Part shown: piece by piece, positions 14,074 through 51,296 of the stretch
Layout of the letters: each line of letters opens with the position of its first letter
Position numbering within the stretch: position 1 is the first letter of the stretch
DNA from: an uncultured archaeon
GTDB lineage: Archaea > Aenigmatarchaeota > Aenigmatarchaeia > QMZP01
DNA: 64,000 nucleotides
NCBI GenBank assembly: GCA_964537525.1
Contig: CAZIAB010000001.1
Coordinates: 425 to 64,424 of the forward strand
Reading direction: 5' to 3'
Program-made: the position numbers and the translations under genes
Notes under the pieces: generated by a model
Database searches by the model: none
What the model was told of the DNA's origin: nothing
The model's input: the letters and a program-made list of their open reading frames with translations, nothing else

Positions 14074-14265
14074 GCTTTAATTTGAATTAGCAAGCTTATA
14101 TTAATTGGACATCCCCGGATTCGTGACCGGCAGTGATTGTGTGGCTGGCATGAAAGTGCTTGCCGGGCCGCGGAAGGAAAAAAACAACAATAAAAACGCA
14201 ATGATATAATTTTATTAAGAACAACGGATATAACATTAATAATACAATAATTAACAGTGAAGCCA
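14074..14265. promoter_or_regulatory. AT-rich promoter/leader region upstream of the surface glycoprotein gene
   Basis: Long A/T tract (ggaaggaaaaaaacaacaataaaaacgcaatgatataattttattaag...) with TATA-like elements about 60 nt upstream of the ATG. This is typical of strongly expressed archaeal cell-surface genes. Confidence 0.4.
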
Positions 14266-34241: not shown

Positions 34242-34790
34242 ATGCTGATGGGCATGGCAGGTGATATAGGATCCACTATAAGGAAGAACTCGATTTCTGT
34301 AATCGTGATGCCGAACACGGCCTATAACGAGACCCTGAAGGACATAGTGAGCGCTGCGCTGGATAAGCACGGCTCGCTCTGTTACATATCGCTCAACAAG
34401 CCATACAACAGCGTGATGACATATCTGAAGAACAAGGGGATTAGTTCTGAGAACATAATATTCATAGACGCGGTGACGAAAAAGCCAGAATCCGATTCAG
34501 ACCAGGTGATATACGTTTCTTCGCCGACAGCACTGACAGAGATTAACATAACCATGAACAAGGTCCTCGAGGCAGGCGGGATAAAGGCCGTCCTCATAGA
34601 TTCCATATCGACGCTTCTGCTCTACACAGAGGAATCGGTCGTCCTGAAGTTCGTGCATTCAATCGTCTCGAAGATGAGGAGCGACAGCAATGACTGCATA
34701 ATGGCTGCCATAGAGGACGAATCCACAAGAGAACTTATAGATGACATGTCAATGTTCGTTGACGAGATTCTGGAGCTGGGCAGGAAATGA
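34242..34790 (+). CDS. inactivated KaiC/RecA-like domain protein (P-loop-less KaiC-like; probably the family catalogued as DUF835)
   Basis: 182 aa. It aligns to the RecA/KaiC core (LCYISLNKPYNSVMTYLKNKGISSENIIFIDA ... KAVLIDSISTLLLY ... KFVHSIVSKMRSDSNDCIMAA), but the Walker A position reads VIVMPNTAYNE with no GxxxxGK[TS]. It is a clear paralog of the ORF at 44715-45332. Confidence 0.6.
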   Translation: MLMGMAGDIGSTIRKNSISVIVMPNTAYNETLKDIVSAALDKHGSLCYISLNKPYNSVMTYLKNKGISSENIIFIDAVTKKPESDSDQVIYVSSPTALTEINITMNKVLEAGGIKAVLIDSISTLLLYTEESVVLKFVHSIVSKMRSDSNDCIMAAIEDESTRELIDDMSMFVDEILELGRK

Positions 34791-35703: not shown

Positions 35704-38700
35704 ATGAACGTCTACAACCTTTTGCCTCTGGTTGCTTTTTCTTCAAACATTGCGCTTGCCCTTTACATACTGTACAGGAATCCCGGGGACAGGCTGAACA
35801 GGATATTCAGCATCGTGCTTTTCTCGGTGGCGGTCTGGTCAATCGGAGAATTTCTATCCTTCACGTCAGCAACGCCTGAGATGTCCGTCCAGCTTTATAC
35901 GATTGCGTGGTCAGGCTCATTGCTGGTTCCGGGCGTGCTGCTGCATTTCTTCCTGGAGTTCACAGGGAGCAGTATAATTAAAAGGAAAAGGAACATACCT
36001 CTTCTTTACCTGCCATATGCGTTCTTCCAGTGCATGGTGATTTTCATGCCAGGCCTCCTGGCGGAATCTGCAAGCGCCACATACTGGGGATACGGATTCG
36101 TGCGCGGGATTCTTTACGTCCCTGTCGTGTTATACCTGCTGGGTTATACGATTGCAGGGATCCTTGCATGCTACAGGTTCTATCTCAAATCCGCAGGCAG
36201 GGTGAGGAATCAGGCAAGGCTCCTCATAATTTCCATGGTCTTCTCGCTGATAGGTGGCATCATAACCGATGTCTTCATGCTGAACGTGGGGTTCGCGGCG
36301 TTCCCGCCCCTGACAACGACATTCTCGACCTTCACTGGGGCGATAATAGCCTATGCAATAGTCAGGCACGGGCTCATGTCTCCCATGAGTTTCAGCATAC
36401 GGAGGAAGACTGCCACGGTCTTTTTGCTGTTCATCATAGCCTTCTGTGCTTTCACGTTTTCCCTGGAGAGCATCTTCTCAGCGAGCGTTGTAGAGGTCCA
36501 GGCCAGGGAGCACCTTGAAACGATAACCCAAATCAAGACGAACTGGATTGATTCTTACATGGGTGACAGGGAGAGCGACATCAAACTCCTTGCATCATCA
36601 TCATCTGTCAGACAGGCATTCAACGGGAAACTTGGCATAGAGATCCAGCTCGCGAAGGACAGCATAAAGCAGAAAGCGATTGAAGTTGCTGGCCAGGTCG
36701 ACGATTACATCAGCAGCCATCCCGGCATGACGGTCGGGGAGCTCCAGAACGACCCGGCGTTCCAGGAGATTGCGGTCCAGCAGGTCGGGGAGACAGGATA
36801 CACGGCACTCACTGATTATGATACCCTGATATGCAGGTTCCATAAGAACCCCGACCTCGTTGACGTTGATTTGCATTCCTTTGCTGAAAGCCTTCCCGGG
36901 TTCTGGTCTGTAATGTCAGAGACAGAAGGAGGAAATGAAGCAGAGGGCTTCTATGACTGGGAAGAGCCTGACGGCAGCATGAAGGAGAAATATATGTATA
37001 TCACGATTCCCATGAGGAGAACAGCCGACGGTGTGGGGGGGCTGAGCGTTGCGGCAACGACCTATCTTGAGGAGTATGAATCCACGATGAAGCTGGCAAA
37101 GGAGTATGAGGATTATTTCCTTGGTTTCATGGAGAACTATGATTATCGTGAGATGTTCCTGATAAGTGCGGGTGGCGAGGTCTGGTGGGCAGCAAGAGAA
37201 AAGAGCGGAATTGGGAAGGACCTTGATGAAGAGCCTTACAACCAAACGGCGCTTGCACGCGTATACAGGGAATCCAGGAACGAGGGCAGGGCTTTCTATG
37301 ACTATGAAATTGATGTGACGGGCGAGGCGTCATTCTTTATTTCTTTTCCCGTTTACATAGAGGACAGGCTCGCTGGGATAATCGTCCTGCAGACAGGGAC
37401 GGAAGACATTGACAGCATCCTGGAGGACAGGACAGGCCTCGGGGAAACCGGGGAAAGCTATCTCGTGGGTGCGGATTACCTCATGAGGTCAAACTCGAGG
37501 TTCCATGAGGAAAGCACGATACTCAGGCTGAGGGTTGATACGGATAACGCAAAGGACTGCTTCCTTCATAAAACCCTTCGTGAAGAAGAAATCGGGGAAA
37601 TGCACGGGGAGATAAAGATAACCAGCAACTACATGGGAACGAGCGTCCTTGGGACGCATGAATACATACCTGAAATGGATTTGTGCCTCCTCGTTGAAAT
37701 CAGCGAGTCAGAGTTGTTCGCTCCCATAAGCGAGATGCAGCAGGGCTTGTTGATATACTTCATCATCATCGTGGTTCTGGGTGCGTTGGTTTCTATTCTC
37801 GTATCCAGCTCTATAACGAAACCCATAATCCGGCTAAGGGATGCCGTGGTTGAGATTGGCAGGGGAAAGCTCAATACCAGGATACTGGTCAATACAGGGG
37901 ACGAGATAGGCGAACTTGCATCTGCTTTCAGGAAGATGACAGGTAACCTGAGGGATTCGCGCAGGGAGATAGAGAAGCGTGCCGAGGAACTGGAGAAGAG
38001 CGTCCATGAGAGGACTGAGCAACTTGACGTGAGGGTCAAGGAACTTACGGACACCAAGACTGCCATCCTTAACATGATGGAGGACGTTGACAAGACCAAC
38101 ATGGAACTGATGAATACCCAGAAGCAGCTGAAGAAGAGCCTTTCTGAGCTGGAGGAGGTCGATGTCAAGAAGAACCAGTTCATCTCCATAGCCGCCCATG
38201 AGCTGAAGACCCCGCTCACGTCGATACATGGATTCTCACAGCTCCTGCTAAACAAGAATGTCGCAGAAAAGGTTGATATGAGGAACAAATACCTCAAGAT
38301 AATGGACCACGAAACCAGGAGGCTTGCAAACCTCGTTGATGACATCCTTGACCTATCCAGGATAGACATGGGGACAATGAAATTCAGCCTTGATAACGTT
38401 GACATGAACGAACTGCTTGACAGCATCAGGAAAGAGGCGGACGTGCTCATAAAGAACAAGGGCCTCCAGCCTGAATATGAGATAAGCAAGAAACTGCCGA
38501 AGGTAAGGACAGACCCTGAGAAGCTGACGCAGGTGCTGATAAACCTGATAAACAATGCCGCGAAATATACCCCAAAGGGCAAGGTAACGTTAAAGGCCTT
38601 GAGGGAAGACCACAGCGTGCGTTTCGTCATAAAGGATACCGGCATAGGGATACCGAAAAACAAGCAGAAAAAGATATTCGAGAGGTTCTACCAGATTGAT

Positions 38701-38955
38701 TCTTCATACACGAGGAGCGCCGGGGGAACCGGTTTGGGCCTTGCACTCTGCAAGGAGTTCATAGAGATGCTTGGCGGTGAGATATGGGTGAACAGCGAAC
38801 CTGGAAAGGGGAGCGAGTTCCATGTCCTACTGCCAATCAGGGCCACCCTCAAGAAGGGTGCCAAGGAGAGAGCGAGAGAAAGCCTAATGAAGGCCAAGAT
38901 TGTTTTGCCTGATGCGGAAAAAGCTACCTTGAAACAGCCCACTCAATCCTCCTGA
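35704..38955 (+). CDS. sensor histidine kinase: N-terminal 7-8 TM domain, large extracytoplasmic Cache-like sensor domain, TM, HAMP, coiled-coil, HisKA, HATPase_c
   Basis: 1083 aa. About 8 TM helices in residues 1-250, a roughly 450-aa extracytoplasmic region, a TM helix (LLIYFIIIVVLGALVSILV), a HAMP-like region (IRLRDAVVEIGRGKLNTRI...GDEIGELASAFRKM), the H-box FISIAAHELKTPLTSI, an N-box LINLINNAAKYT and G-boxes DTGIGI / GGTGLGLALC. No receiver domain. Confidence 0.85.
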   Translation: MNVYNLLPLVAFSSNIALALYILYRNPGDRLNRIFSIVLFSVAVWSIGEFLSFTSATPEMSVQLYTIAWSGSLLVPGVLLHFFLEFTGSSIIKRKRNIPLLYLPYAFFQCMVIFMPGLLAESASATYWGYGFVRGILYVPVVLYLLGYTIAGILACYRFYLKSAGRVRNQARLLIISMVFSLIGGIITDVFMLNVGFAAFPPLTTTFSTFTGAIIAYAIVRHGLMSPMSFSIRRKTATVFLLFIIAFCAFTFSLESIFSASVVEVQAREHLETITQIKTNWIDSYMGDRESDIKLLASSSSVRQAFNGKLGIEIQLAKDSIKQKAIEVAGQVDDYISSHPGMTVGELQNDPAFQEIAVQQVGETGYTALTDYDTLICRFHKNPDLVDVDLHSFAESLPGFWSVMSETEGGNEAEGFYDWEEPDGSMKEKYMYITIPMRRTADGVGGLSVAATTYLEEYESTMKLAKEYEDYFLGFMENYDYREMFLISAGGEVWWAAREKSGIGKDLDEEPYNQTALARVYRESRNEGRAFYDYEIDVTGEASFFISFPVYIEDRLAGIIVLQTGTEDIDSILEDRTGLGETGESYLVGADYLMRSNSRFHEESTILRLRVDTDNAKDCFLHKTLREEEIGEMHGEIKITSNYMGTSVLGTHEYIPEMDLCLLVEISESELFAPISEMQQGLLIYFIIIVVLGALVSILVSSSITKPIIRLRDAVVEIGRGKLNTRILVNTGDEIGELASAFRKMTGNLRDSRREIEKRAEELEKSVHERTEQLDVRVKELTDTKTAILNMMEDVDKTNMELMNTQKQLKKSLSELEEVDVKKNQFISIAAHELKTPLTSIHGFSQLLLNKNVAEKVDMRNKYLKIMDHETRRLANLVDDILDLSRIDMGTMKFSLDNVDMNELLDSIRKEADVLIKNKGLQPEYEISKKLPKVRTDPEKLTQVLINLINNAAKYTPKGKVTLKALREDHSVRFVIKDTGIGIPKNKQKKIFERFYQIDSSYTRSAGGTGLGLALCKEFIEMLGGEIWVNSEPGKGSEFHVLLPIRATLKKGAKERARESLMKAKIVLPDAEKATLKQPTQSS

Positions 38956-39301
38956 TGAGGTCATTGTTGTCAAAGGGTTTCGTGATGTAGTCAAGAATCA
39001 TCAGTTTCTTGAGGGTGCGGTAATTGATTTCCTTTGATTTCAGTATGGTAAGGAAGACTATCTTCGTTTTCCTGGTTTTCGGGGTTTCCCTTATCTTCTT
39101 CGCGACATCGGTTCCCTTCATACCGGGCATCATTATGTCAAGCAGTAGAAGGTCTGGCTTCTCATTCTCGATAATTTCGAGGGCTTCCCTGCCATTGCCC
39201 GCAGTCACTACGTCAAAGCCCTTTGAATCGAGCAGGTCCCTTATCAGAATTAACAGATTCTCTTCATCATCAACGACCATTATCTTTTTCTTCTTGGGCA
39301 T
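38924..39301 (-). CDS. stand-alone CheY-like response-regulator receiver domain protein
   Basis: 125 aa. IMVVDDE, the phospho-acceptor D in LLLLDIMMPG, and T/K positions (FLTILKS...ITKPF). No output domain. Its 3' end overlaps the histidine-kinase 3' end by about 30 nt in a convergent arrangement. Confidence 0.85.
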   Translation of the reverse strand: MPKKKKIMVVDDEENLLILIRDLLDSKGFDVVTAGNGREALEIIENEKPDLLLLDIMMPGMKGTDVAKKIRETPKTRKTKIVFLTILKSKEINYRTLKKLMILDYITKPFDNNDLIRRIEWAVSR

Positions 39302-39326: not shown

Positions 39327-39698
39327 TCATCCGATAATCTTCTTGATTCTCTTCAGTAAATCGGCGTTGTCAAATGGTTTCGTGATGTAATCCGAGACTC
39401 CCATCTTCTTCAGCGTGTCTTTTCCGGATTCAGAGAACTTTGCAACGGTCAGGAAGGCGACTTTCAGGTCCTTTGTCCCGGGGTCTGCCCTTATCTTCTC
39501 GCAGACCTCCCTGCCGCTCATCCCGGGCATCATCATGTCGAGGAGGACCAGGTCAGGCTTGGTCTTCTTCAGTTTCTCCAGGGCTTCCCTGCCATTGCTG
39601 ACCGCTATCACGTTATATCCCTCGGCCCCCAGGATTGCCTTTATCAGCTCAAGAAGTGAAGACTCGTCATCCACTGCCATTATGGTCTTTGACATCAT
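39327..39698 (-). CDS. stand-alone CheY-like response-regulator receiver domain protein (tandem paralog)
   Basis: 123 aa. IMAVDDE, LVLLDMMMPG, FLTVAKF...ITKPF. Paralogous to the adjacent receiver. Confidence 0.85.
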   Translation of the reverse strand: MMSKTIMAVDDESSLLELIKAILGAEGYNVIAVSNGREALEKLKKTKPDLVLLDMMMPGMSGREVCEKIRADPGTKDLKVAFLTVAKFSESGKDTLKKMGVSDYITKPFDNADLLKRIKKIIG

Positions 39699-39791
39699 TT
39701 ATATTTGTTTATGTTTTATTTAAATCTGAATTCCGGCGTCTGTTTTATAAACCGGTCCGCCAATATATTAATTACTATAGTAGTGGTGATT
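39699..39791. promoter_or_regulatory. AT-rich divergent promoter region between the CheY pair (-) and the KaiC-like gene (+)
   Basis: ttttatttaaat and gttttataaacc TATA-like boxes. A GGTGA ribosome-binding site lies 5 nt before the KaiC ATG. Confidence 0.4.
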
Positions 39792-40646
39792 ATGGCAGGG
39801 GTCAAGGCAAAGATAGACATCTCCAAGATAAAGAAGGCCGTGAAGAAGGAATTCTCAGAGAAGGGAAGCAAGACAGAGATTGTTACAAAGGTCGGAAGGG
39901 AATACATAAAGACCGGCATAAAGGGTTTCGATGCGCTGTTCGAGATAGGGATACCCAGGGGAGCGATAGTTCTGGTTGCAGGTGGGCCCGGATCTGGGAA
40001 GACGACGCTCTGCCTTCACATGATAATAAATGCCGCGAGGGCAGGAAAGAAATGCCTTTACATGTCATTCGAGGAGTCAGAGGAGAGGCTCTTCCAGCAC
40101 ATGGAGGACTTCGGCTGGGTCCCGAAGGCGGTGGACAAGAAGAACCTCCTGATAAGAAGGTTCAGCTCCTTCGACATATCAAAGGCCATAGACGCCATGC
40201 TGGCTAAACAGAAAGGCGAGCTCATGATAGACTTCGAACCCGTCATCCTTCCGAAGGGCTTTGTCCCGGACTTCGTGATAGTGGATTCTGTCAGCTCTAT
40301 ATCGTCCAACTTCATCGGCAGGGAGGAGAGCTACAGATCATACATAGAACATTTATTCAGGTTCTTCGAGGATAAGGGCTCAACGACATTCATGATATCA
40401 GAGACCGACCAGAACACGGTCTCCTACAGCAGGACCGGCGTCGAGGAATTCCTCGCAGACGGCGTCGTGGCCCTCTACAACATAAGGAGGGGTGACGTGA
40501 GGGAGATGGCCCTTGAAGTGATAAAGATGAGAGGGACCAAGCACAAGAAGAAGCTGGTTGCGACAAAGGTGGTTGGCGGCGTCGGGATAGAGGTGTATCC
40601 GGAGCAGGAAGTGTTCGGTGCGACAGAGGCAAGGCAGATAGGATAG
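39792..40646 (+). CDS. single-domain KaiC/RadA-like ATPase (RecA superfamily) with intact Walker A and B motifs
   Basis: About 284 aa. GIKGFDALFEIGIPRGAIVLVAGGPGSGKTTLCLHMI (Walker A), CLYMSFEESEERL, DFVIVDSVSS (Walker B region), TTFMISE. Start moved from the ORF-track start (39705) to the ATG at 39792. Confidence 0.8.
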   Translation: MAGVKAKIDISKIKKAVKKEFSEKGSKTEIVTKVGREYIKTGIKGFDALFEIGIPRGAIVLVAGGPGSGKTTLCLHMIINAARAGKKCLYMSFEESEERLFQHMEDFGWVPKAVDKKNLLIRRFSSFDISKAIDAMLAKQKGELMIDFEPVILPKGFVPDFVIVDSVSSISSNFIGREESYRSYIEHLFRFFEDKGSTTFMISETDQNTVSYSRTGVEEFLADGVVALYNIRRGDVREMALEVIKMRGTKHKKKLVATKVVGGVGIEVYPEQEVFGATEARQIG

Positions 40647-40659: not shown

Positions 40660-43600
40660 ATGGTATTTCATACTCGCAGATTGCTGGCATTCGCTTTTCT
40701 GTTTTTGGCAGTAACACCTGGTCTGGTGATGGCTGCCCCGAGCGTGAGCCTGTCCTCGCCCGATGACGGAAATGTATCGTTGTCCGGGAGCGTGGCGTTT
40801 GAGTGCAATGCCACGGCAGACTCGCTGACAGAACTCGCTCTGTATACAGACATCATCGGGGGCTGGTCAGCATATGAGACTGCATATTACGGACAACTGT
40901 CCGAGGATTCCAACACGCTTCTGTTGTGCAACTTCACCGGATATGCGTGCAGCGATTCCACGGGAACGGATTCCGGGACATCCATAACGGCGGGCAAGAT
41001 AGGGGGCGGCGTCTTCGTGGACGGGACCGACACGCTAACCTTTTCCAGTGCAGGCAACTTCGACGTGCTGGAGGGCTCGATTGAGATGTGGGTGAAGCCA
41101 GAGGGCAACCTGAGCGGGCAGCACTGGCTCTTCATCGTTGCGCAGAGCCCGAGCGTGCACACGACAGAGTACAGGCTATGGATAGCGGATGACGTCCTGT
41201 ATTTCAGGTTCATGGACGAATACGAATCCCCGTCCAGCGTGTGGAGGGACGTTTCCTCGTGGAATCCCGGGGAGTGGCATCATGTTGCAGCTACGTGGAA
41301 AGCAAGCACGGATTCGATGGAACTTTATGTTGACTCTAGCACGGGCGGGAATTCCTATAATATCGGCGGTATGGGTTACATGGGCTCCATGGGTGACACC
41401 ATGTACGTGGGAAGCTACAAACTGGGTTCAGGCCAGTTCAACGGAACGATGGATGAGTTCAGGATAAGCGATTACGAGAAGAGCGCATCAGAGATAAACG
41501 ATTCCTACATGACCGGCCTGACCAACGTGACCTCCGCCGGCGGGCAATGGACCGTCAGCGGGATAAGCGACGGGACGTATGTGTGGAACTGCATGGCAAC
41601 TGACAACGCATCGGTTACTGGATGGAACGACACGAACAGGACCCTCTACGTGGACGCGTCCAGCCCGCCTGTCGTAAATTCAGTTACAACGGTCCCGAAC
41701 ACGACTGACGGGCTTGACCCGGGCATAGACATAAACGTCACCGCGAACATAACGGACGTGAGCGGAGTCAATGCGAGCATACTCATGTACAGGAGGTCAG
41801 GGACGTCTACGTGGAGCAACGTGACCATGAACAACATAACCCCAGACATCTGGAACGGTTCCTTCCCGGTTCCCCTGCCGCCGGGTACGTGGGAATACGC
41901 GATATGGTACAACGACAGCAACTCTCACTCGAACCAGACAGCCGTAATGAACGTCTCCGCTGAGTATGATTATTCCTGGTCATTATCGCCCTCTTCCATG
42001 GGAACCACTTACATTGTCGCAGGAGAGACCGGAACTCTCGGGGATCTGCATATAACGAACACGGGCGAATATCCGCTGAATTTCAACATATCGTCCACGT
42101 GGGGGGACACATCATTCAACGTATCAGACCCGGACAGCTTTGACATAGGAGTAGGCCAGTCGAGGACCATAAACGTGACGGTGACGGCCTCGGTGACTCC
42201 TTACGAATATGCAGTCAATATAACGATAGGCTGCACGACTCCGGGAGCGAGCACGACCTCCTCTGTGGTGGATGCCTCCCTGATATCTTACGTGGGCGGG
42301 CCCCAGCTCACGGTGACTATAACGAACCATCCCGTTTCCGTCCTTCAGAGCCAGTCGAACATCGTGTTCAATGCGACCGTGAAGAACATAGGTAACGAGA
42401 CTGCTAACGGCACGTGGATAAACTGGACGTTCCCGGCGGGGTGGTCAAACTCCTCGGGGAACGTGACATACTTTGCAGGGAACATAGCGGCAGGCTCCAC
42501 GTTCTACTCGAACATCGTCATGTACACCTCGTCTTCTGCTGCGGCAGGGGTGTCGCAGGTATACCTGAACGCGAGCTCCAACCAGACCTATAACGGCTCT
42601 GACAGCACCCTGATCGGGATATCCTGCAGCAGCTCTGACAGCGTCTGCGGTTCGGGGTGCACCTACCTGACCGATTCCAACTGCGCTGCCCCGGGGGGCG
42701 ACGGGGGGAGTTCCGGCACCTCGGGCACCGTGGTCTCGGGCGGGGGCAGGGCATCCTATTACAGGCTTGACCTGAAGCTTCCCGCAAGGCTTGACCTTTT
42801 CAGGGGAGACATAGAGGACGTCGAGATAGTCGTGATGAACACCAACAACGTCGGGTTTTCAGAGCTAACCCTTTCATCAGGGGGTTACAGGTCAACCCTG
42901 ATATCCCTGTATTCGGGCATCCAGAACGGGACGATTGAGGCGAACTCTGAGATGCCGTTCACGCTGCGCATAAACGTTCCCGGCTACATGGCATACGGGG
43001 AGTATCCTGTAACAATCACTGCCACTGCATACGGGGGCCTGAACACGACCGTTGAGGGCTCTGCAACAATAAGGCTGCTCGTCCACAGCGTTGATGAGAA
43101 CGAAACAATCTCACTTTTCAGGGAAGCACAGAAGGCAATCGGGATAATGAACAGCGCGGGCATCCCAACCAACAGGACGTCAAGGATTCTCGAAGCCGCG
43201 TCCTCATACCTCGATGACTGGAATTATGACAAGGTAAAGGAACTTTCCCTGCTCATACTGGGATACAAGAACAGCTCGCTTGCCGCGAGGGCAATGCTCG
43301 GGGAGCTGGACGAGGGTATCTGGTATGCAGAGAGGTATGGCCTTTCTTTCCCTGAAACCACCAAGCTCAAGTCGCTTGCGTATTCGGCGCTCGCAAGGGA
43401 GGATTTCCAGAGGGCCGAAGATAGGTCTGAATCCGCGCTCCTCACGCTCGCGGTGGAGACGGGCACGGTTCTCCCGCTATTCATGTTCATTGAGAACAAC
43501 TGGCTCCTTATAATCCTCTCCTTTGCCGGGCTATCTGTCATCATGTTCTTTGGCAGGAGGGTGGTTATCCTGTCCCTAATAGAAAGGAGAATAAAGCGCC

Positions 43601-44718
43601 TCTCCGAAGAGAACGGAATCCTTGAGAAGCTGATTTCAGTTTCCAGCTCTGATTACTTCATAGAGAAGAGCATAAGCAAGGGGGAGTATAAGAAGAGTAT
43701 GGATGAATACAGCAGGAAATACTCAGTAAACAAGAGGGAGGAGATACGGCTCAGAGTCAGGAAGATGCTCCTCAAGTCGCGCGGCAGGAAGGCTGCGGAG
43801 GGAAAGAGGATGGAGATGTTCAGGGAACTGATGGCCGAGACGCAGAACAGGTACTTCAGGGAAAGGAAGATTTCCAGGACAGTATACAATTCAACGATAA
43901 GGGAGATATCCAGGGAGATTGCTGACCTGGAGAACAGGAAAGGTGTTAGCACCTCGCTGAAGGCTGCCGTTTCCATAATGATCATCCTGTTGCTTGTGCC
44001 CATGGGGGTTGGTGCAACTCCGCAGCAGGACGCTCTCGGTGCGATAAATGCAGCGGAGGGTCAGATTTCAGACATGGAATCCCTGGGCCTTGGAACGGAA
44101 TATGCGAACGGCACCCTGAACGAGGCCAGGTTCCTATACAACGAGGGCTATTACGCCGGGGCGCAGTCCCTTGCAGAAGAGGTAGGAGATATAAAGGAAT
44201 CTGCTATAAGGGTGGACGGGCTGGTTGATGAAGTGGAGTCAAAGCTCTACGACGTCGGCGCGCAGGGAATAGACGTGTCCGGTCCGTGGGGGCTCTTCTA
44301 CCAGGCAATGGATTCGCTGGAAATGGAGGATTTCGTCACGGCAGAATCGCTTCTTGAGGAGGCATATGAAAAGCTGGACGAGCTCGAGGAGCGCGCCTCC
44401 CTCGAGAGGGCACTCGGAAGCAGCGACACCATGGGCATCGTGGTGAACAACTGGGAATGGTTTTTCTTTTTCCCGGGGCTGTTCGTTTTATGCTTCCTCA
44501 TTACGCGCAAGCTGACATCCAAGGCATTCATCAGGAAGAAGATTAAAAGGCTGGAGAGGGAGAGGGATGACATATCGGGCATGATAAAGGAGGCCCAGAA
44601 AATGTATTTCCAGGATGACAGCCTCGGAAAGATAGAGTATGAGAGCAGGGTGGACAGGTACAATGAGAGACTTGTAGACGCTAAGAAGAACCTGACCGCC
44701 ATGAGGAAGAGGCTTTAG
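40660..44718 (+). CDS. giant surface protein (1352 aa): signal peptide, N-terminal ConA-like/LamG lectin-fold domain, long N-x-S/T-rich beta-rich region, then a duplicated [TM helix + cytoplasmic SHOCT-like coiled-coil] module at the C-terminus
   Basis: Signal peptide MVFHTRRLLAFAFLFLAVTPGLVMA|AP. LamG-like core (GSIEMWVKP...WHHVAATW...LYVDS...GTMDEFRI). Dense sequons. Near the C-terminus, TM(LLIILSFAGLSVIMFF)-IKRLSEENGILEKL...SISKGEYKKSMDEYSRKY is followed by a second TM(WEWFFFFPGLFVLCFLI)-IKRLERERDDISGMIKE...LGKIEYESRVDRYNERL. Confidence 0.75.
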   Translation: MVFHTRRLLAFAFLFLAVTPGLVMAAPSVSLSSPDDGNVSLSGSVAFECNATADSLTELALYTDIIGGWSAYETAYYGQLSEDSNTLLLCNFTGYACSDSTGTDSGTSITAGKIGGGVFVDGTDTLTFSSAGNFDVLEGSIEMWVKPEGNLSGQHWLFIVAQSPSVHTTEYRLWIADDVLYFRFMDEYESPSSVWRDVSSWNPGEWHHVAATWKASTDSMELYVDSSTGGNSYNIGGMGYMGSMGDTMYVGSYKLGSGQFNGTMDEFRISDYEKSASEINDSYMTGLTNVTSAGGQWTVSGISDGTYVWNCMATDNASVTGWNDTNRTLYVDASSPPVVNSVTTVPNTTDGLDPGIDINVTANITDVSGVNASILMYRRSGTSTWSNVTMNNITPDIWNGSFPVPLPPGTWEYAIWYNDSNSHSNQTAVMNVSAEYDYSWSLSPSSMGTTYIVAGETGTLGDLHITNTGEYPLNFNISSTWGDTSFNVSDPDSFDIGVGQSRTINVTVTASVTPYEYAVNITIGCTTPGASTTSSVVDASLISYVGGPQLTVTITNHPVSVLQSQSNIVFNATVKNIGNETANGTWINWTFPAGWSNSSGNVTYFAGNIAAGSTFYSNIVMYTSSSAAAGVSQVYLNASSNQTYNGSDSTLIGISCSSSDSVCGSGCTYLTDSNCAAPGGDGGSSGTSGTVVSGGGRASYYRLDLKLPARLDLFRGDIEDVEIVVMNTNNVGFSELTLSSGGYRSTLISLYSGIQNGTIEANSEMPFTLRINVPGYMAYGEYPVTITATAYGGLNTTVEGSATIRLLVHSVDENETISLFREAQKAIGIMNSAGIPTNRTSRILEAASSYLDDWNYDKVKELSLLILGYKNSSLAARAMLGELDEGIWYAERYGLSFPETTKLKSLAYSALAREDFQRAEDRSESALLTLAVETGTVLPLFMFIENNWLLIILSFAGLSVIMFFGRRVVILSLIERRIKRLSEENGILEKLISVSSSDYFIEKSISKGEYKKSMDEYSRKYSVNKREEIRLRVRKMLLKSRGRKAAEGKRMEMFRELMAETQNRYFRERKISRTVYNSTIREISREIADLENRKGVSTSLKAAVSIMIILLLVPMGVGATPQQDALGAINAAEGQISDMESLGLGTEYANGTLNEARFLYNEGYYAGAQSLAEEVGDIKESAIRVDGLVDEVESKLYDVGAQGIDVSGPWGLFYQAMDSLEMEDFVTAESLLEEAYEKLDELEERASLERALGSSDTMGIVVNNWEWFFFFPGLFVLCFLITRKLTSKAFIRKKIKRLERERDDISGMIKEAQKMYFQDDSLGKIEYESRVDRYNERLVDAKKNLTAMRKRL

Positions 44719-45332
44719 CCGGGCGGGAGCTCGGGGGTGTCGAGACCGGACAGGCCGTAAGGCCAGACAGCACCTGAATCGTGGCTTATCTTCCCTGGCT
44801 CATCGGGGGGTTTTCCTTCCCTGTCCATGGCCGTAAGGTCCTTTGTTTCATCAGCGAACATGACTAAATCGTCTATGAATTCATCAACGTTGACTTCGGA
44901 AACGGTATCCCTCGAAATCATGTAAACAATCTTGCCGGGATTCCCTGCCTTGACGCTGTTGGTGAACCTGAGCACGGATGATGGCTCATGGTATCTGAGG
45001 AGGCAGGATATGTCATCGAACACGAAGGCGTTGCACCTCTTCTTCATCCTGAGTATTGCCCCGGAAATCTCATCAATCGCAGAGGGTGAGGATATGTATA
45101 AGCATCTCTCTGTGGATTCCTGGCTCGAATAGTGGCTGCTGAGGGTGTCTATGAAGCAAAGACTCTTTGCGTCAATGCCGTTCTTTTTCAGTGTTTTCAT
45201 TGCAGAAGAAACAGTATCACTGAGGCACACGTAGCATATCCTATGGTTCCTGAGCTTCTTGATGATGTTCGTTTTCTTGAAATGCTCATCAGACCTTATG
45301 AGGAAAATGAAGAGCCCGTTCTTATCAAACAT
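44715..45332 (-). CDS. inactivated KaiC/RecA-like domain protein, paralog 2 (no P-loop)
   Basis: 205 aa. ICYVCLSDTVSSAMKTLKKNGIDAKSLCFIDT...CLYISSPSAIDEISGAILRMKKRCNAFVFDDISCLLRY...KIVYMISRD aligns to the ORF at 34242 and to the KaiC core, but lacks Walker A. It ends in a P/G-rich tail. Convergent with the 1352-aa gene, overlapping it by 4 bp. Confidence 0.55.
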   Translation of the reverse strand: MFDKNGLFIFLIRSDEHFKKTNIIKKLRNHRICYVCLSDTVSSAMKTLKKNGIDAKSLCFIDTLSSHYSSQESTERCLYISSPSAIDEISGAILRMKKRCNAFVFDDISCLLRYHEPSSVLRFTNSVKAGNPGKIVYMISRDTVSEVNVDEFIDDLVMFADETKDLTAMDREGKPPDEPGKISHDSGAVWPYGLSGLDTPELPPG

Positions 45333-45377: not shown

Positions 45378-48300
45378 TTACTTCAGTGCATCCCTTATCT
45401 TCCTGTCAATCTCTCCGACCTTTTCCTCGCTCCTCTTCCTCATGCTCTCGAATGCCTCCTTTGATATTATTCCTGACTTGTACTGGTTCTCAAGGAGCCT
45501 TAGCATCCTCTGGTTCTTCGCCTTCTCTGTCCTCAGAACGTCCACGTCGCTGCTGGGCCTGACGGCTCCTGCAACCTGCCTCGCCTCGGACAGCCTTCCC
45601 TTGAGAAGAATCTTCAGGTTCCTGGTCATCCTCCTCATGAAGATTACCAGGACTGCTATTACCACTGCAAACACTATGATAAGTATGACCCACCATGGAA
45701 GGAAGCCGCGCGACAGTATGTCATCGAGCAGGTCCTCTGCCTCCCTTATGAGCTGCCATGCATTGTATACAGAATCGAGCGCGGCATCGTACAGCTCCTT
45801 CTGGAGGTAGTTCTCGGCGAGCTCTATCTCGTTCTCTATGTCCTTTATGAGGTCTTCCACGGGCGAGACGTCGTACCCCGATGCCTTCGCGCTCTCTGTC
45901 CTTGTCTTGAGCTCCCTGAGCTTGGCCTTGAGCCTGACGAGCTCGAAGTCTATGAGCTCCTTCCTGGAGGTGAAGACGAAGAGTGTGAATACCTTGCTGT
46001 CCTTTGACTGGTTGGAATCCGCGGTTATCATGACCTCGTGCTGCCCGGATGCTATCCCGAAGGGGACGAGTATCTTCATGGTGAAGGTTGCCTCCTCTCC
46101 CGCTGCCAGAGTCCCTATGTTCCTCGGTTCGATGATGAACCAGTTTTCCTCTGTCGAGCGGGCGGTCAACTGGACGTTGGTGGCGGGGGAGTCGCCGGTA
46201 TTCTTGACGAGTATGTTGACGTACCTTATCACACCGACCTCGACACCCACCTCCCTGTCGTACTCTGTTATGTTCAGCCTGGCCTGGCCGCCGCCCCCTC
46301 CGGGCCCTGCCTCCTCTGGCGCGCCTCCCTCCTCTCCGCTCGGCGGGGGCGGGGCAGGTGCCTCGCCTATGACGTCAAAGGTCCCGTTGGCAGTGGCATA
46401 GAGGTTATTGACCGTGTTGTACGTCACCTTCACGTTGAGCGTGTAGGTTCCCGGCGGCTGGCTGGTGAATATGTAGGCGCTGACAGAGGGGTCAGTGCTC
46501 GCATCGAAAGTCTTGTTCTCCCCCGCGCCTATGTTGGCTGAGAAGTGCTGGTAGTCCCAGGTCTGCCCCTGGCCAGAGACCCAGTATTCTATCAGGACGT
46601 CAAGGTTGTCAACGTCGCCCTTGTTCTCGGCGTAAAGCTCGAAGTTGAGGATGTCCCCTGGCTCGACCTCCTTGTTTAGTATGTTGACCCCGACGTCGTA
46701 GGGCCCTCCCAGGGAGACCCTTATGTAATCATAGGCAACCGTGTAATACCCTCCTATGGTGGCATTGAGTATGACGTTGTATACCCCGACCGGTGCCAGG
46801 GGCGGCATGGCATAGTTGTAGGTATAGACTCCCACCGACTCCCTTGTCATGCTCGCCTTCGTGGTGCTGAAGTACGGACTGTTGACGGGGTTCAGCACGT
46901 TCAGGTTTATGCTGTCCGGGTCCGTGAGCATGCCAGAGCTGTCAGTGAACCACATCACGAACTTCATGATGCTGTTCTGGTACCAGAGCGGGTAGATTCT
47001 CATGTCAGCGTGTATGCCGTAGCTCGGCGGGTGGTCGGTCATGGTGAAGGTGTAGTTCTGGGTGCTGTTGACGTAAAAGCCGACCTGCGTCTCGTAATAT
47101 GTGGAGTTTACGAGGACCGTGTAGTTTCCTGCCGGATAGCCGTAGGTGGGGAAGTCGATGTATATCCCCGCGTAATCGTTCCTTATGAAGCCGTCGCTCT
47201 CTGTCAGGTATGACTTGTTGAAGATTGTCTCGTTATCAGGGTTTAGTATCACGACTTCGACGGTGACGTTGCCTATATTCTGCTCGCCTGAAGATTCCTT
47301 TGCCCTGTAATAGACAGAGCCCTGGTATCCCTGGTTGCTGTATTCATCGCTCAGGGTGAACATTATCGGGCTCAGTTTCGTGTATACGTAGAAGGTGTCG
47401 CTTCCTGTCTCATTCTCGCCCAGGTCGTCCTCTGCATACACCCATGCCGTGTAGTTTCCGATGTAGGTGGTGTTGCCCCACGTGGAGGGATAATATGCAT
47501 ACCAGCACGAGGTGCTTCCCGGACCGCTTCCGGTGCATCCCCCCCAGTAAAGCCTGGTCATCGAGACGGTGTTGTTGGTCCCGTCGGGCCTGGTCACCGT
47601 CACGTTGATGGGCATGAGTATCGGGCGGTCGGACTGGGCCGTGACGTTTGAGTATATGAGAACGCTCCCCAGCTGCTCTGCGTAATCGGGTATGACCTCG
47701 ACGTCCACGATGGGCTTTATGTAGGGGCTCAGCAGGATTGTCACGTCGATTTCATCGGGCTCGGCAGAAGCGTTGGTTGCATTTATCGTGTAGTTGGCTG
47801 TCCATGTGCTCTGGCCCGCGATTCCGCTGACGTTGTAGTAGAACGTCAGCTCGTACTCATCATCCGAATCTATGGCGAAGGCCGTGGAACTGACGTTGGT
47901 GTGGTTTACCTCCGCGGGGGTGACGCTGAAATCAATCAGCACGTTTCCTGTATTGTTAACTAGAACCATGCAGGCGACTCCCACGTCAGGGCTCTGGGAG
48001 TGCTCGCAATAGGTCTCATTCACGTACCAGCTGGCGTTGACAGGGACTGTCAGGCTCACGTTGAGCGAGAAGTTCCCGGCGTTGTTCGATGTTATGTTGA
48101 GCGTCCCGTTGTAGGTTCCCGGCGGGTATGCGAAGGGGACGGTGGCATTGAGCAGGATTTCCTGGGACTGGCCTGTGGAGAGGTCGTGCGGGCCTTCTGA
48201 TGAGAGAGTGGCAGATAAGCTCCCGGGACCTGTCAGGTTCAGGGTGACGTTATAGACAACGTCATTCCCTGAAGAGAGGATAGTCACATTGCCGAAGCTG

Positions 48301-51296
48301 CCGGAGGTCCCATGCTCGAGAGAGCCCGTGATATTTTCCTTGTCAACCTCCAGTGTAACGTTCGGTGTTACGGTGACGTTGACAATGCTCCAGTTGTACA
48401 TCGTCCCTATGTCAATCTCTTCCCAGCTAACGGTGACGTTTATGGTATAGTTTCCCGCAGGCGTCCCGCTCATCACGGTGACGTTGTACGTAACGTTGCA
48501 GGAAGAATCAACTGACACGTTGCCGCAGTCATATGACGTCCCCCCTGTCGCGTTCAGGTAACCGAGATCCATCGAGAGGTTTATCTCTGTGTCGAATGCC
48601 GTAACTGCCCCTATGTTAGTCGTGTTTACAGAGAGGTTGAAGGAATCGCCGGCATACCAGTTCACGATGTCCGTGGTGAAGTTGCCGGGCGTCACGTTGA
48701 TTGAGACATTGGTTCCGGAAACTATCACAGTGAGATTGATTAGATGGAAGTCGCTGGTGGTTGATACGTTCAGCGTCCCGTTGAAGATTCCCGGGGCCTG
48801 GTCCGAGGAGACGTTCACGTTAACCGTGACGTCCTGGTCAGTTCCGGGATTTATGTAAGATATCGGACCGGCAGGATTGAATATGAACTGGAAGTCATCC
48901 AGACCAGTCACGGTGAAGTTGACGTCCTCAATCCTGTAGTTTCCCGTGGAGTTTATGTTTATCGTGCCCATCTGCTTCTCGAACCCGGGACCCACCCTGA
49001 CAGAGAGATTATCGGTGTCAACGAGCATTATTGGGTTCTGGGCTATCGTCACGTTGAAGAGGGTGTAATTGTAGTCAGTGGAAGCGTCTGGATTCGTCCA
49101 GTCTATCGTTATGTTGAATTCATAGGTCTCGTTGGTTGATGCCGCAAGCGCGGTTAAGTTGAAGTGCCTGACACAGCTCAGGTCTATGAGGACGTCGCTG
49201 CAGGAATAGAAGGTCTCGTTGGAGGAGAAGTTCTGGGGAACGGACATGGTGATGTTGGTATCGTATGCGGTGCCGTTGCCTATGTTGCTCATCGTGACCG
49301 TGAGGATAAAGCTTTCGTTGTCGTACCAAGTAACGTTGGTAAGGACCTTGGAAACGGGACTGGGTGTCACCGTTGCGTTGGTAGTGGGAGCTTCGACAGC
49401 GAAGTTGTCGTAATCCGTGCCGTTGTTCCCGTCCCTGATTGCCGTGCAGTTCAGGTAATAGAGGCCGAGCCCGCTGGGCGCGGTGAAGTTTATGCTGTAG
49501 CTGCCGTCACCGTTGTCCGTTATGTTATCCACGTTCGTCTTGTCCCCGGGACTATCGGAATGGTAATATGTACAGTTGACGTCATCTGCCCCTGATATGT
49601 TGGTATCCTGCCTGTAGTTCTTTACCCATAAAGTTGCATTTACTTCCCTGTCAGGTAGGCCGGAGGGGTTCAGAATCGTGAGCGAAGCATAGAACTGGGC
49701 CGTGACGTTGAATGTGTGGTAGGATTCATTGAGCAGGTATCCGTCATGGTTGTATATCCTTGCTGTGTAGTTCCAGTAGCCCTCCGCGGACGTGCTTGGG
49801 AGGGTATAGAGGTTTGACCAGACACCGTCCCCTGCTGCCTGGTCGCCGTGGCCGGAATCGCTGTCATCATAGAGGACAATCGTAACATCATCAGCCGTGG
49901 ATGGCGTTCCCATGTCAAGGGTCGCGTTGGTGTGGTTGGTGAGGTTCCACCCGTCAACCGTGACGTTTACCCAAAGAAGGACGGTCTCGTTCCTGTTGTA
50001 TATGGTGTAGTTTGTTTGAGGGTAGGAAGCTATTATCCATTTCTCTGCAGCGGATTCCGTTATCTCCGGCGCGTACTGGAGGTTGCTCCTGACGTTCGTC
50101 ACCAGGCTCGGTGTCCTTGCGGAATGGCTCGATACGAAGACCGTCTTAGCCCATATGGAAGAGCCGGGGGACATGGTGGCCTCGGGGTTCATCCTGATTC
50201 CAATCCTGCCCAGCGCGGTGCTGTTATCGGCATAAAGGCTGGACGTGCTGGAGTTCTCCAGGATTATCCCGGTTATGTGGCTCGCCGAAAGGTAGGTGGC
50301 CATGATCCATGAGAAAGGGTTGGTCGAGTTCTTGTCCAGGATGTTGTAGGTAGAACTGTACGCGAGGCTCGCGTCGAATGCAGGGGCCCCTGCATCTGCG
50401 CTCCTGTTCACTGAGTACGTGGCATTGTTGGTTATGTTGTACTCGAGCCTGTACCAGGGAATGGTCGGGTAGAAGTAGTATTTCTTCGTTATGAGGGTCT
50501 CGTTCGTAACGTTGTCGATCTGTCCCCAATATACCTCGTCACCCGTCTGGGTCACGGTTATCCTCACATTGCCTACCACTGCATCCATGCTCATGTTGAG
50601 GTCCCAGCTGAAGTTGTGGCTCCCGTTGGTGAACGCCAGGTATTCCCTTGTCCTCTGGCCGCTGCTGCTGTATATGAACTGCTCCTCTTCGTGGGCGATG
50701 TCGTAGACCCTGTAGAGGCCTGAGGTGTTCTCCCCGCGCCTCGTGTCGAAATAGAACAGGTAGTTGGTGTTATTTATGTAGAACTCGTCACCGGAGGGGT
50801 TGAACGTTATGTTGTAGCCGAGCTCCTGGTAGCTCCAGGTTCTTTCCTGTTTCTGGCCGTTCTGCACGGTATCAAAATACAGGTAGAAATTCCTGTCCTT
50901 GCTCTCGTTGTACCATGTCGTCCCGTTCAGTATGAATATTACCTCGCCGTTTGCTGATGCCGCTGCATCATAGTCTCCGTTGGGGTCGAACTGCACAGGG
51001 AGCTCTTGCAGGACAGCGCCTGTGGAGACGTTGTATTCAACCAACCTGAGGGAGAGGTTATCGAAGGTTCCTGAGGCTGACATGTTCTCGAGCAGGTAGG
51101 TGAAGTTCACCTGGTACTCCACGGGCCAGTCGGTCCTGTTCTCGCCCGAGGTGTTTATGTCGAGCCTTATCCTGTAGTGCCAGGACGAGTTCCACCAGAC
51201 GTCATTATAGTTCTCTGACCTGGTAAAGCTGTTGCTGATGATAAACCCTGCCAGCACAATCGCCAGCATCAGTGCCAGGCCAATTCTTTTATTCAT
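45378..51296 (-). CDS. giant surface protein (1972 aa): signal peptide, very long N-x-S/T-saturated beta-rich ectodomain, P/G-rich linker, CARDB-like domain, helical stalk, TM helix, cytoplasmic SHOCT-like tail
   Basis: MNKRIGLALMLAIVLAGFIISNSF signal peptide. About 7 sequons per 100 aa where I counted. The APAPPPPSGEEGGAPEEAGPGGGGG linker is followed by LNITEYDREVGVEVGVIRYVNILVKNTGDSPATNVQLTARS (CARDB-like), a coiled stalk and TM (WWVILIIVFAVVIAVLVIF). The C-terminal ...LLENQYKSGIISKEAFESMRKRSEEKV matches the SHOCT consensus. Confidence 0.75.
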   Translation of the reverse strand: MNKRIGLALMLAIVLAGFIISNSFTRSENYNDVWWNSSWHYRIRLDINTSGENRTDWPVEYQVNFTYLLENMSASGTFDNLSLRLVEYNVSTGAVLQELPVQFDPNGDYDAAASANGEVIFILNGTTWYNESKDRNFYLYFDTVQNGQKQERTWSYQELGYNITFNPSGDEFYINNTNYLFYFDTRRGENTSGLYRVYDIAHEEEQFIYSSSGQRTREYLAFTNGSHNFSWDLNMSMDAVVGNVRITVTQTGDEVYWGQIDNVTNETLITKKYYFYPTIPWYRLEYNITNNATYSVNRSADAGAPAFDASLAYSSTYNILDKNSTNPFSWIMATYLSASHITGIILENSSTSSLYADNSTALGRIGIRMNPEATMSPGSSIWAKTVFVSSHSARTPSLVTNVRSNLQYAPEITESAAEKWIIASYPQTNYTIYNRNETVLLWVNVTVDGWNLTNHTNATLDMGTPSTADDVTIVLYDDSDSGHGDQAAGDGVWSNLYTLPSTSAEGYWNYTARIYNHDGYLLNESYHTFNVTAQFYASLTILNPSGLPDREVNATLWVKNYRQDTNISGADDVNCTYYHSDSPGDKTNVDNITDNGDGSYSINFTAPSGLGLYYLNCTAIRDGNNGTDYDNFAVEAPTTNATVTPSPVSKVLTNVTWYDNESFILTVTMSNIGNGTAYDTNITMSVPQNFSSNETFYSCSDVLIDLSCVRHFNLTALAASTNETYEFNITIDWTNPDASTDYNYTLFNVTIAQNPIMLVDTDNLSVRVGPGFEKQMGTININSTGNYRIEDVNFTVTGLDDFQFIFNPAGPISYINPGTDQDVTVNVNVSSDQAPGIFNGTLNVSTTSDFHLINLTVIVSGTNVSINVTPGNFTTDIVNWYAGDSFNLSVNTTNIGAVTAFDTEINLSMDLGYLNATGGTSYDCGNVSVDSSCNVTYNVTVMSGTPAGNYTINVTVSWEEIDIGTMYNWSIVNVTVTPNVTLEVDKENITGSLEHGTSGSFGNVTILSSGNDVVYNVTLNLTGPGSLSATLSSEGPHDLSTGQSQEILLNATVPFAYPPGTYNGTLNITSNNAGNFSLNVSLTVPVNASWYVNETYCEHSQSPDVGVACMVLVNNTGNVLIDFSVTPAEVNHTNVSSTAFAIDSDDEYELTFYYNVSGIAGQSTWTANYTINATNASAEPDEIDVTILLSPYIKPIVDVEVIPDYAEQLGSVLIYSNVTAQSDRPILMPINVTVTRPDGTNNTVSMTRLYWGGCTGSGPGSTSCWYAYYPSTWGNTTYIGNYTAWVYAEDDLGENETGSDTFYVYTKLSPIMFTLSDEYSNQGYQGSVYYRAKESSGEQNIGNVTVEVVILNPDNETIFNKSYLTESDGFIRNDYAGIYIDFPTYGYPAGNYTVLVNSTYYETQVGFYVNSTQNYTFTMTDHPPSYGIHADMRIYPLWYQNSIMKFVMWFTDSSGMLTDPDSINLNVLNPVNSPYFSTTKASMTRESVGVYTYNYAMPPLAPVGVYNVILNATIGGYYTVAYDYIRVSLGGPYDVGVNILNKEVEPGDILNFELYAENKGDVDNLDVLIEYWVSGQGQTWDYQHFSANIGAGENKTFDASTDPSVSAYIFTSQPPGTYTLNVKVTYNTVNNLYATANGTFDVIGEAPAPPPPSGEEGGAPEEAGPGGGGGQARLNITEYDREVGVEVGVIRYVNILVKNTGDSPATNVQLTARSTEENWFIIEPRNIGTLAAGEEATFTMKILVPFGIASGQHEVMITADSNQSKDSKVFTLFVFTSRKELIDFELVRLKAKLRELKTRTESAKASGYDVSPVEDLIKDIENEIELAENYLQKELYDAALDSVYNAWQLIREAEDLLDDILSRGFLPWWVILIIVFAVVIAVLVIFMRRMTRNLKILLKGRLSEARQVAGAVRPSSDVDVLRTEKAKNQRMLRLLENQYKSGIISKEAFESMRKRSEEKVGEIDRKIRDALK
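46285..46365. repeat. GC-rich low-complexity tract encoding a Pro/Gly/Ala/Glu linker in the 1972-aa protein
   Basis: ggccgccgccccctccgggccctgcctcctctggcgcgcctccctcctctccgctcggcgggggcggggcagg on the plus strand. It corresponds to APAPPPPSGEEGGAPEEAGPGGGGG in the minus-strand product. Confidence 0.6.

Follow-up and report, generated by a model that had tools for sequence, protein, structure and literature searches.

A lectin-headed surface protein with a joined double membrane anchor, encoded beside KaiC-type genes in a DPANN archaeon

We analysed a 64,000-nt stretch of DNA from an uncultured archaeon (assembly GCA_964537525.1, contig CAZIAB010000001.1, positions 425 to 64,424 of the forward strand; hereafter the window), and describe here an open reading frame (ORF) at 40660..44718 on the plus strand that, according to the ORF listing, encodes 1352 aa. 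The product carries an N-terminal signal peptide, a lectin-fold head, a beta-rich ectodomain dense in N-X-S/T sequons and a C-terminal membrane anchor built from two related units, here called A and B, and its gene stands among genes for KaiC-like ATPases and two-component proteins (Table 1). The window is archaeal chromosome, with genes for form-III-type RuBisCO, HMG-CoA reductase, diphthamide synthase, SecDF, phosphoenolpyruvate (PEP) synthase and triosephosphate isomerase. For the PEP synthase, the closest named homologs come from Aenigmatarchaeota (67–69% identity), followed by a DPANN group archaeon and Nanohaloarchaea.

Table 1. Features of the 1352-aa protein and of the neighbouring signalling genes, in window coordinates (KD, Kyte–Doolittle hydropathy; AF2, AlphaFold2; HMM, hidden Markov model; TM, transmembrane helix)
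Feature	Position	Strand	Basis or remark
Whole ORF: surface protein with joined double anchor	40660..44718	+	ORF listing; homologs at 31–100% identity in 21 further fused loci
N-terminal signal peptide, residues 1–26	40660..40737	+	hydropathy peak KD 2.32 at residues 8–26, basic residues before
ConA-like/LamG jelly-roll domain, residues 122–280	41023..41499	+	Pfam PF13385; AF2; Foldseek
CARDB/NPCBM_assoc-type immunoglobulin (Ig)-like domain, residues 570–639	42367..42576	+	Pfam PF10633, E 2.2e-7, above cut-off
Cys-rich motif C-x3-D-x2-C-G-x-G-C-x4-D-x2-C, residues 656–675	42625..42684	+	invariant in 19 sequences
Unit A helical ectodomain, residues 809–937, two ~60-aa half-repeats	43084..43470	+	AF2, hhalign
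TM1, residues 947–965, predicted outside to inside, then RR	43498..43554	+	KD 2.01; kept with basic residues after it in 15 relatives
Predicted cytosolic loop with two helical-hairpin repeats, residues 966–1043 and 1044–1093	43555..43938	+	hhalign, AF2
TM2, signal-peptide-like internal helix, residues 1102–1120	43963..44019	+	KD 2.25; n-h-c pattern in 15/15 relatives
Unit B helical ectodomain, residues 1121–1254, motif YAN(D/G)TLNEA nearly invariant	44020..44421	+	AF2, hhalign, HMM
TM3, residues 1264–1286, predicted outside to inside, then RK..K..RKK	44449..44517	+	KD 1.65 (1.2–2.5 in relatives); basic residues always after
Third predicted cytosolic helical-hairpin copy, residues 1287–1352	44518..44715	+	hhalign, AF2
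o182, paralog of p205, inactivated-KaiC type	34242..34790	+	Pfam KaiC 26.9 bits (cut-off 26.6), DUF7504, DUF835, DUF7090
7TM-Cache-HAMP histidine kinase	35704..38955	+	Pfam
Receiver-only response regulators (two)	38924..39301; 39327..39698	-	Pfam
KaiC-like ATPase, intact Walker A (GGPGSGKT)	39705..40646	+	Pfam PF06745, E 1.7e-48; ends 14 nt upstream of the ORF
p205, divergent KaiC-like, without Walker A	44715..45332	-	relatives' Pfam matches; convergent, overlaps the ORF stop codon by 4 nt

The ORF is real and conserved. A protein search returned one 100%-identical entry (P0001) and 18 full-family relatives with identities down to 32%, nearly all of them 1350–1480 aa long, and our family alignment holds 19 relatives at 31–100% identity to the ORF product. 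In their records these loci go under Aenigmatarchaeota, Woesearchaeota or uncultured archaeon, and a few bins are labelled Methanosarcinales; together with the PEP synthase homologs, the Aenigmatarchaeota and Woesearchaeota titles mark the family as encoded by DPANN archaea. A frame of this length could also be produced by an assembly or sequencing error, that is, by a lost stop codon or a frameshift joining two genes. Three related loci (L001, L002 and L028) do carry both parts as separate genes in different frames, and a fourth (L032, on a 1.1-Mb contig) shows extra frame breaks. Nevertheless, 21 independent loci, drawn from different projects and reaching down to 31% identity, retain the fused frame unbroken, as do 17 of the 19 aligned family proteins, and P0001 reproduces it from another assembly. 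Because the frame is kept in so many independent loci, we rejected an artefact and give this explanation next to no weight.

At the N terminus, two arginines precede a hydrophobic stretch (residues 8–26) that ends in VMA/AP (/ denotes the putative cleavage position), a Sec signal peptide pattern by hydropathy; under the -3/-1 rule, cleavage at this position is probable. The head that follows has the ConA/LamG fold proposed in a first-pass annotation of the locus. The Pfam model Laminin_G_3 (PF13385) matches residues 122–280 across profile positions 3–151 of 151, at 62.3 bits against a cut-off of 27.6 (E 7.4e-17), and the four motifs by which the fold had originally been recognized (GSIEMWVKP at residue 139, WHHVAATW at 206, LYVDS at 222 and GTMDEFRISD at 262) all fall within this match. 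An AF2 model of residues 22–345, built with 19 family sequences, is all-beta, with a predicted local distance difference test score (pLDDT) of 85.4 and a predicted template-modelling score (pTM) of 0.78. Searched against the PDB with Foldseek, the model gave 334 matches at E ≤ 0.001, headed by the lectin-like jelly rolls (HCN domains) of clostridial neurotoxins and NTNH proteins and by the carbohydrate-binding domain 4 of the arabinanase AbnA (E ~1e-9, probability 1.0). A search of the PDB by sequence gave weak matches to pentraxins, which have the same fold. Because an above-cut-off Pfam match and a predicted-structure match to lectin-like jelly rolls agree, the ConA/LamG assignment is confirmed at the level of profile and model. 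The stretches that flank the LamG domain (residues 27 to ~85 and ~290 to 335) look like the two halves of an Ig-like domain, and a Big_7 match is present in some relatives.

Between the head and the anchor lie several beta-sandwich domains (residues ~340 to ~790), one of which is the CARDB/NPCBM_assoc-type domain. Within this region the cysteine-rich motif at residues 656–675 is unchanged at C656, D660, C663, G664, G666, C667, D672 and C675 in 19 of 19 family members, and it drew no family match in the Pfam scan; its four cysteines might bind a metal or be knotted by disulfides. Of the 41 N-X-S/T sequons in the protein, 38 lie in residues 27–946 (4.1 per 100 aa), and a gene for an AglB/STT3 oligosaccharyltransferase is present within the window. 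These features support an exported, heavily sequon-rich product, in line with the first-pass annotation. Few sequons occur in the helical domains on either side of the membrane, and sequon density is uninformative for the topology of unit B. With its signal peptide, its sequons and its LamG and NPCBM_assoc/CARDB-type domains, the product belongs with the large, exported, sequon-rich LamG/beta-sandwich proteins of DPANN archaea.

The anchor consists of a tandemly repeated unit of ~240 aa, comprising a helical ectodomain of ~130 aa, a membrane helix and a helical hairpin placed in the cytosol by the topology described below. Residues 794–1034 align with residues 1096–1351 by BLASTP (E 4e-15), and a Smith-Waterman self-comparison scored 146 against 35.8 +/- 6.0 over 300 shuffles (z = 18.5). 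Family profiles of the two units agree both in the ectodomain (hhalign probability 99.0, E 7e-18) and in the membrane helix with its tail (probability 99.6, E 3e-24). The C-terminal internal duplication suggested by the first-pass annotation is therefore present, although the repeated module had been drawn as a membrane helix with a tail and in fact also includes the ~130-aa helical ectodomain. The duplication is nested. Each ectodomain is made of two half-repeats of ~60 aa that match each other with hhalign probabilities of 90–95 (94.7 for unit A), and the hairpin is itself a repeat of ~50 aa with the core Q..YF..G.isK..Y, present in three copies, two of them internal, that match each other at probabilities of 98.1–98.8. 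The extra copy lies in unit A.

In an AF2 model of residues 786–1352 (pLDDT 75.9, pTM 0.43), each ectodomain folds into five helices (pLDDT 82–92 for the unit A ectodomain), and TM1 and TM3 each extend into a cytosolic helix of ~50 residues followed by a turn and a second helix; the helices of the C-terminal tail fall at positions 480–532 and 539–566 of the model numbering. No solved structure matched the anchor in a sequence search, Foldseek returned only generic helical bundles from the PDB for the model (best E 0.26), and no family in the Pfam and NCBIfam scans covers this region.

By hydropathy, three hydrophobic segments follow the beta-rich ectodomain (residues 947–965, 1102–1120 and 1264–1286). 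All three are kept in 15 of 15 aligned relatives, with basic residues after the first and third and before the second, a positive-inside pattern. Because three conserved helices share this consistent distribution of charge, the implied topology would place residues 27–946 outside, 966–1101 inside, 1121–1263 outside and 1287–1352 inside. The first-pass annotation had instead drawn an in-out-in path through two helices, each followed by IKRL. Both of these motifs are found after a hydrophobic helix (IKRLS at residue 978 and IKRLE at residue 1295), but the helix between them, at 1102–1120, had been overlooked. With three helices the path becomes outside-TM1-inside-TM2-outside-TM3-inside, and what had been taken for a short extracellular loop is a span of 143 aa (residues 1121–1263). 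The segment ATPQQDALG... is, as had been proposed, most likely extracellular.

The second of these helices resembles an internal signal peptide. In the ORF product, TM2 has K/R before it and small residues at -3/-1 at its end (VGA/TP), giving the n-h-c layout of a signal peptide, and in L001 and L002 its counterpart is the N-terminal signal peptide of a separate gene for unit B. TM2 would thus either stay in place as a membrane helix or be cut by signal peptidase after VGA(1120), and a cut there would free unit B as a chain of its own. Because TM2 keeps all features of a cleavable signal peptide in all fused relatives, we regard cleavage into two chains as a real, if minority, possibility.

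The first-pass annotation had further assigned the tails to the SHOCT family, picturing a surface lectin with a tandem TM-SHOCT module, two membrane helices and a short extracellular loop. SHOCT is a domain of ~30 aa with two amphipathic helices and a strongly conserved Gly and Glu, mostly found at C-termini (PMC3581485). Several features recall it. Two of the membrane helices are each followed by IKRL and a helix-turn-helix, the core pattern of a hydrophobic helix, a Gly and a second helix is loosely reminiscent of the published description (PMC3581485), and the tail of p1972, another large surface protein in the window, gives a sub-threshold SHOCT match (19.1 bits, E 0.0011). The SHOCT model (PF09851), however, gave no match at E ≤ 10 to the three tails of the 1352-aa protein and none at E ≤ 1 to 45 tail fragments from 15 relatives; with the family consensus sequences its best score, over 10 residues, was 10.3 bits, where the cut-off is 27. 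With HMM matches absent in all three tests, we rejected SHOCT membership of the tails. When the tail hairpin is set against the SHOCT description, AF2 predicts a helix-turn-helix with a Gly common at the turn, with Q, Y/F and a later Y as the sole positions conserved across the family. Like SHOCT, the hairpin is a short motif of two helices close to a C-terminus, often after a membrane helix and at times overlapping a coiled coil (PMC3581485); in contrast to SHOCT, it is here ~50 aa long, has its own core, occurs in three copies and is not matched by the HMM. A tandem TM-SHOCT module would also leave the third conserved hydrophobic helix and the ~130-aa ectodomain within the duplicated unit unaccounted for, and we consider it very improbable.

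Two further proteins in the window touch on this hairpin. p587 (51297..53060, minus strand) is a soluble coiled-coil protein without a hydrophobic segment; its residues 6–62 weakly match the HMM of the cytosolic hairpin repeat (E 1.6e-4), and its C-terminus (SFRSGLISREAFQKTKKLL) looks SHOCT-like by eye, yet has no Pfam SHOCT match. p1972 (45378..51296, minus strand) carries 109 sequons. Its signal peptide is followed by NPCBM_assoc/CARDB domains, a helical stretch and one TM at residue 1869, ahead of the tail mentioned above, and it has orthologs in 5 related loci. The layout of its C-terminus is similar-looking, and it was not detected by the narrow anchor family HMMs.

Comparison of reading frames across 34 genome loci revealed that the two units of the anchor also occur as separate genes. 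The fused form is found in 21 loci and the split form in L001, L002, L026, L028, L029 and L032, the last with extra frame breaks that may be sequencing errors. In L036 the unit B gene overlaps or directly follows the big gene, as it does in L001, L002, L026, L028 and L029; in L001 the gene B start codon shares nucleotides with the gene A stop codon (ATGTATAG). Two shorter relatives, of 1114 and 1111 aa, end after unit A, and the gene that follows encodes in each case a unit B protein of 254–260 aa, in which a signal peptide precedes a helical ectodomain, a TM and a hairpin; the unit B proteins of L026 and L029 are longer (463 and 485 aa). The separate B genes of L001 and L002 lie at 13339–14111 and 13329–14093 of their loci. 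With the unit B HMM, the stand-alone B proteins are recovered at E 1e-42 to 1e-50. Because at least five relatives encode unit B separately, in a downstream gene that overlaps the stop codon of the large one, we interpret the 1352-aa protein as a gene fusion. Its anchor is made of the units of two paralogous neighbouring genes joined end to end, with the direction of the change left undecided by the tree. In this neighbour-joining tree, split outgroups lie outside a mostly fused ingroup, and split and fused forms are mixed in one ingroup clade, which points to at least two fusion or fission events.

The same anchor is found below other heads. P0020, with a DUF2341 head, has A and B fused, whereas P0023, with a GEVED head, is followed by a separate unit B protein of 479 aa. 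A profile of the anchor matched 2,606 representative proteins (clusters) at E ≤ 0.001, 719 of them at E ≤ 1e-30. The best 150 of the 2,606 matches comprise 83 with unit A only, 40 with A and B, and 19 stand-alone unit B proteins (218–335 aa); in the A-only group of these 150, 39 proteins of between 400 and 5,086 aa have the match ending ≤40 aa from their C-terminus. In the sequence libraries and literature that we searched, we found no earlier description of the anchor module, of its nested duplication, of its fused and its split form or of its association with KaiC-type genes.

Two observations on relatives may be added. P0119 (2584 aa) and P0159 (2710 aa) contain 21–22 tandem copies of the anchor's ectodomain repeat, and for this reason the repeat can, judging from these sequences, be amplified into long arrays. 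In L001 (7584..9944) and L002 (5596..9901), the position just 5′ of the LamG gene is taken by glycosyltransferase genes (GT2, PMT_2) or by genes for a sulfatase, a phosphodiesterase and a PAPS reductase. These genes hint at lineage-specific modification of the surface protein or of its glycans.

The ORF is flanked by KaiC-type genes on both sides. Upstream, the listed start of the KaiC-like ATPase gene, a TTG at 39705, adds a hydrophobic 29-residue extension (39705..39791); because tblastn aligns homologs from other loci no earlier than residue ~36, the true start is probably the Met at 39792 (MAGVKAK...). Downstream, p205 itself has no Pfam match, and we call it KaiC-like because its relatives and its paralog o182 match KaiC-type Pfam models. 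In the p205 family these matches reach 30.8 bits for KaiC and 45.9 bits for DUF7504, with DUF835 and DUF7090 also represented and Walker A absent; compared directly by hhalign, the p205 and KaiC families gave only a weak match (probability 3.4%, P 0.013). p205 and o182 are thus of the inactivated-KaiC type reported for archaeal signalling (PMC5847659). Further upstream of the kinase lie genes for a PAS protein, o182 and a MinD-like ATPase. An active KaiC-like protein, inactivated KaiC-like proteins and two-component genes thus stand together in the window.

These neighbours recur with the family. Within 10 kb of the family gene, 19 of the 34 loci have a KaiC homolog; a homolog of p205 or o182 is present in 17 of the fetched loci. 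About three quarters of the loci with usable flanks have a KaiC-family gene within 10 kb, a raw frequency over these loci. An inactivated-KaiC-type gene is the very next gene in 10 fetched loci and in the window itself, while homologs of the receivers occur in 14–15 related loci and of the kinase in 11. KaiC genes also adjoin P0020 and P0023, whose DUF2341 and GEVED heads are unrelated to LamG, but not P0021. Because KaiC genes adjoin anchor proteins with unrelated heads, the link goes with the anchor rather than with the LamG head, and it is frequent, not universal.

Together, these findings are best explained, in our estimate with a probability of about 60%, by a Sec-exported, N-glycosylated DPANN surface protein that acts as a host- or glycan-binding adhesin, its lectin-fold head carried on a two-unit anchor that is tied to KaiC-based signalling. 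DPANN archaea are described as rich in LamG proteins, with a presumed role in contact with the host (PMC5498576, PMC7443923). Because of this literature and the LamG fold, the head of the present protein probably has as its ligand a glycan or glycoprotein carried by a host cell or a substrate. The genes of A and B are fused here and adjacent elsewhere, which suggests that the two units cooperate, most simply by pairing with each other in the membrane, as they probably do. The three cytosolic hairpins would probably serve as docking sites for the neighbouring KaiC-like ATPase and the Walker-A-less KaiC-like proteins, and through such docking the histidine kinase and receiver proteins encoded next to it would be linked to the surface protein. 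This coupling is suggested by the long, repeat-built cytosolic parts and by the adjacent KaiC-type genes, the latter a matter of gene order only.

Several points weigh against this interpretation. The topology is a prediction from hydropathy, charge distribution and comparison with the split genes. The anchor model reaches a pTM of only 0.43, with confidence below 50 at TM2, and does not fix how A and B are arranged relative to each other. The neighbour-joining tree fits fusion and fission alike. Eight loci with long flanks have no KaiC-family gene within reach, and KaiC-like genes are common in archaea, so that some adjacency is to be expected by chance.

The same eight loci would also fit a purely structural role, in which the protein is of the envelope or S-layer type, the beta-sandwich and LamG domains form the cell coat, the helices act as stalk and anchor, and the KaiC and two-component genes are unrelated or regulate expression. 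Such a protein would have just the observed plan of a beta-rich ectodomain, a helical stalk, a C-terminal membrane anchor and dense sequons, and the other large, sequon-rich anchored proteins of the window (p1972, p1058 and p3611) give the region the look of a general envelope-protein island. However, cytosolic parts of ~135 aa and 66 aa with three conserved repeat copies exceed what anchoring needs, an inactivated-KaiC-type gene is the immediate neighbour both in the window and in the 10 fetched loci, and KaiC genes accompany the anchor despite different heads. We therefore consider a purely structural role unlikely, though it has substance, and prefer an adhesin coupled to KaiC-based signalling.

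The adhesin interpretation can be extended beyond this family, though the extension is speculative and we hold it to be doubtful. The A/B anchor may be a widespread archaeal transmembrane coupling device in which a large variable adhesin A and a small paralogous B form a pair, the hairpins recruit KaiC-type proteins, and host contact is reported to, or controlled by, KaiC signalling; fused forms might then be cut at the internal signal peptide in the manner of a polyprotein.

Other large genes accompany the locus. p3611 (53073..63908, minus strand) has a frame that is open at the window end; the encoded part, of at least 3611 aa, includes Ig-like domains and 191 N-X-S/T sequons. A single TM-like stretch (around residues 3215–3240) precedes a HerA/DUF87 P-loop ATPase domain (~3270–3430), and the product would be a huge surface protein joined to a cytoplasmic HerA-like ATPase. 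In related loci, giant genes of 3338 and 4711 aa lie two to three genes downstream, after a small helix-turn-helix gene. p1058 (14257..17433, plus strand; 1058 aa) has a signal peptide, 53 sequons and one TM at residue ~929, with no Pfam match at E ≤ 1e-5. Two adjacent genes at 24285..32119 (minus strand) encode long coiled-coil proteins (1773 and 838 aa) with only weak coiled-coil-type Pfam matches; both genes are also kept in L003, a syntenic locus.

DPANN archaea live attached to other cells. To our knowledge, the molecules that make and sense this contact are almost unknown. LamG-headed proteins were already suspected to be adhesins; what we add is a defined anchor module in two-gene and fused forms. 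The fusion is genomic evidence that the large protein and its small neighbour probably work together, and the head domain, the internal signal peptide and the cytosolic repeats offer concrete targets for questions of ligand, processing and partner binding. If the KaiC link were merely positional, the protein would be one more envelope protein of an uncultured archaeon.

Among known systems, the protein resembles SlaA/SlaB of the Sulfolobales by layout alone, in that a large outer protein and a smaller, membrane-anchored partner with a helical stalk are encoded by adjacent genes. Unlike SlaA and SlaB, both partners here are anchored, their anchors are paralogous, and they are often fused. With the HCN domain of clostridial neurotoxins and NTNH and with domain 4 of AbnA, the head shares the jelly roll over ~220–235 aligned positions (root-mean-square deviation 3.3–4 A). 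Its sequence identity to solved structures is only 12–16%, and here the domain sits between Ig-like strands as the head of an archaeal membrane protein.

KaiC-centred signalling networks in archaea, with KaiC-like ATPases and inactivated KaiC domains associated with two-component proteins, were reportedly set out by Makarova, Galperin and Koonin in 2017 (as cited in PMC5847659 and PMC6393860). KaiC and inactivated KaiC are portrayed as hubs of archaeal signalling with links to two-component systems (PMC5847659). The locus agrees with this picture in clustering an active KaiC-like ATPase and two proteins that lack a Walker A with a histidine kinase and receiver-only regulators; it differs, as observed here, in that a large surface protein with a lectin-fold head and its anchor module are associated with the cluster.

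Surface proteins with LamG domains are already a known kind in DPANN archaea. Those of the Micrarchaeota archaeon Mia14 and of Nanohaloarchaeota are, like the present protein, large, exported, organism-specific and sequon-rich, and both combine a LamG jelly roll with CARDB/PKD-like beta-sandwiches in DPANN genomes and are presumed to act in host contact (PMC5498576, PMC7443923). As far as covered here, and compared by description, the two reports mention no doubled anchor, no internal signal-peptide-like helix and no linkage to KaiC for those proteins. Unlike them, the family studied here comes from Aenigmatarchaeota-like genomes.

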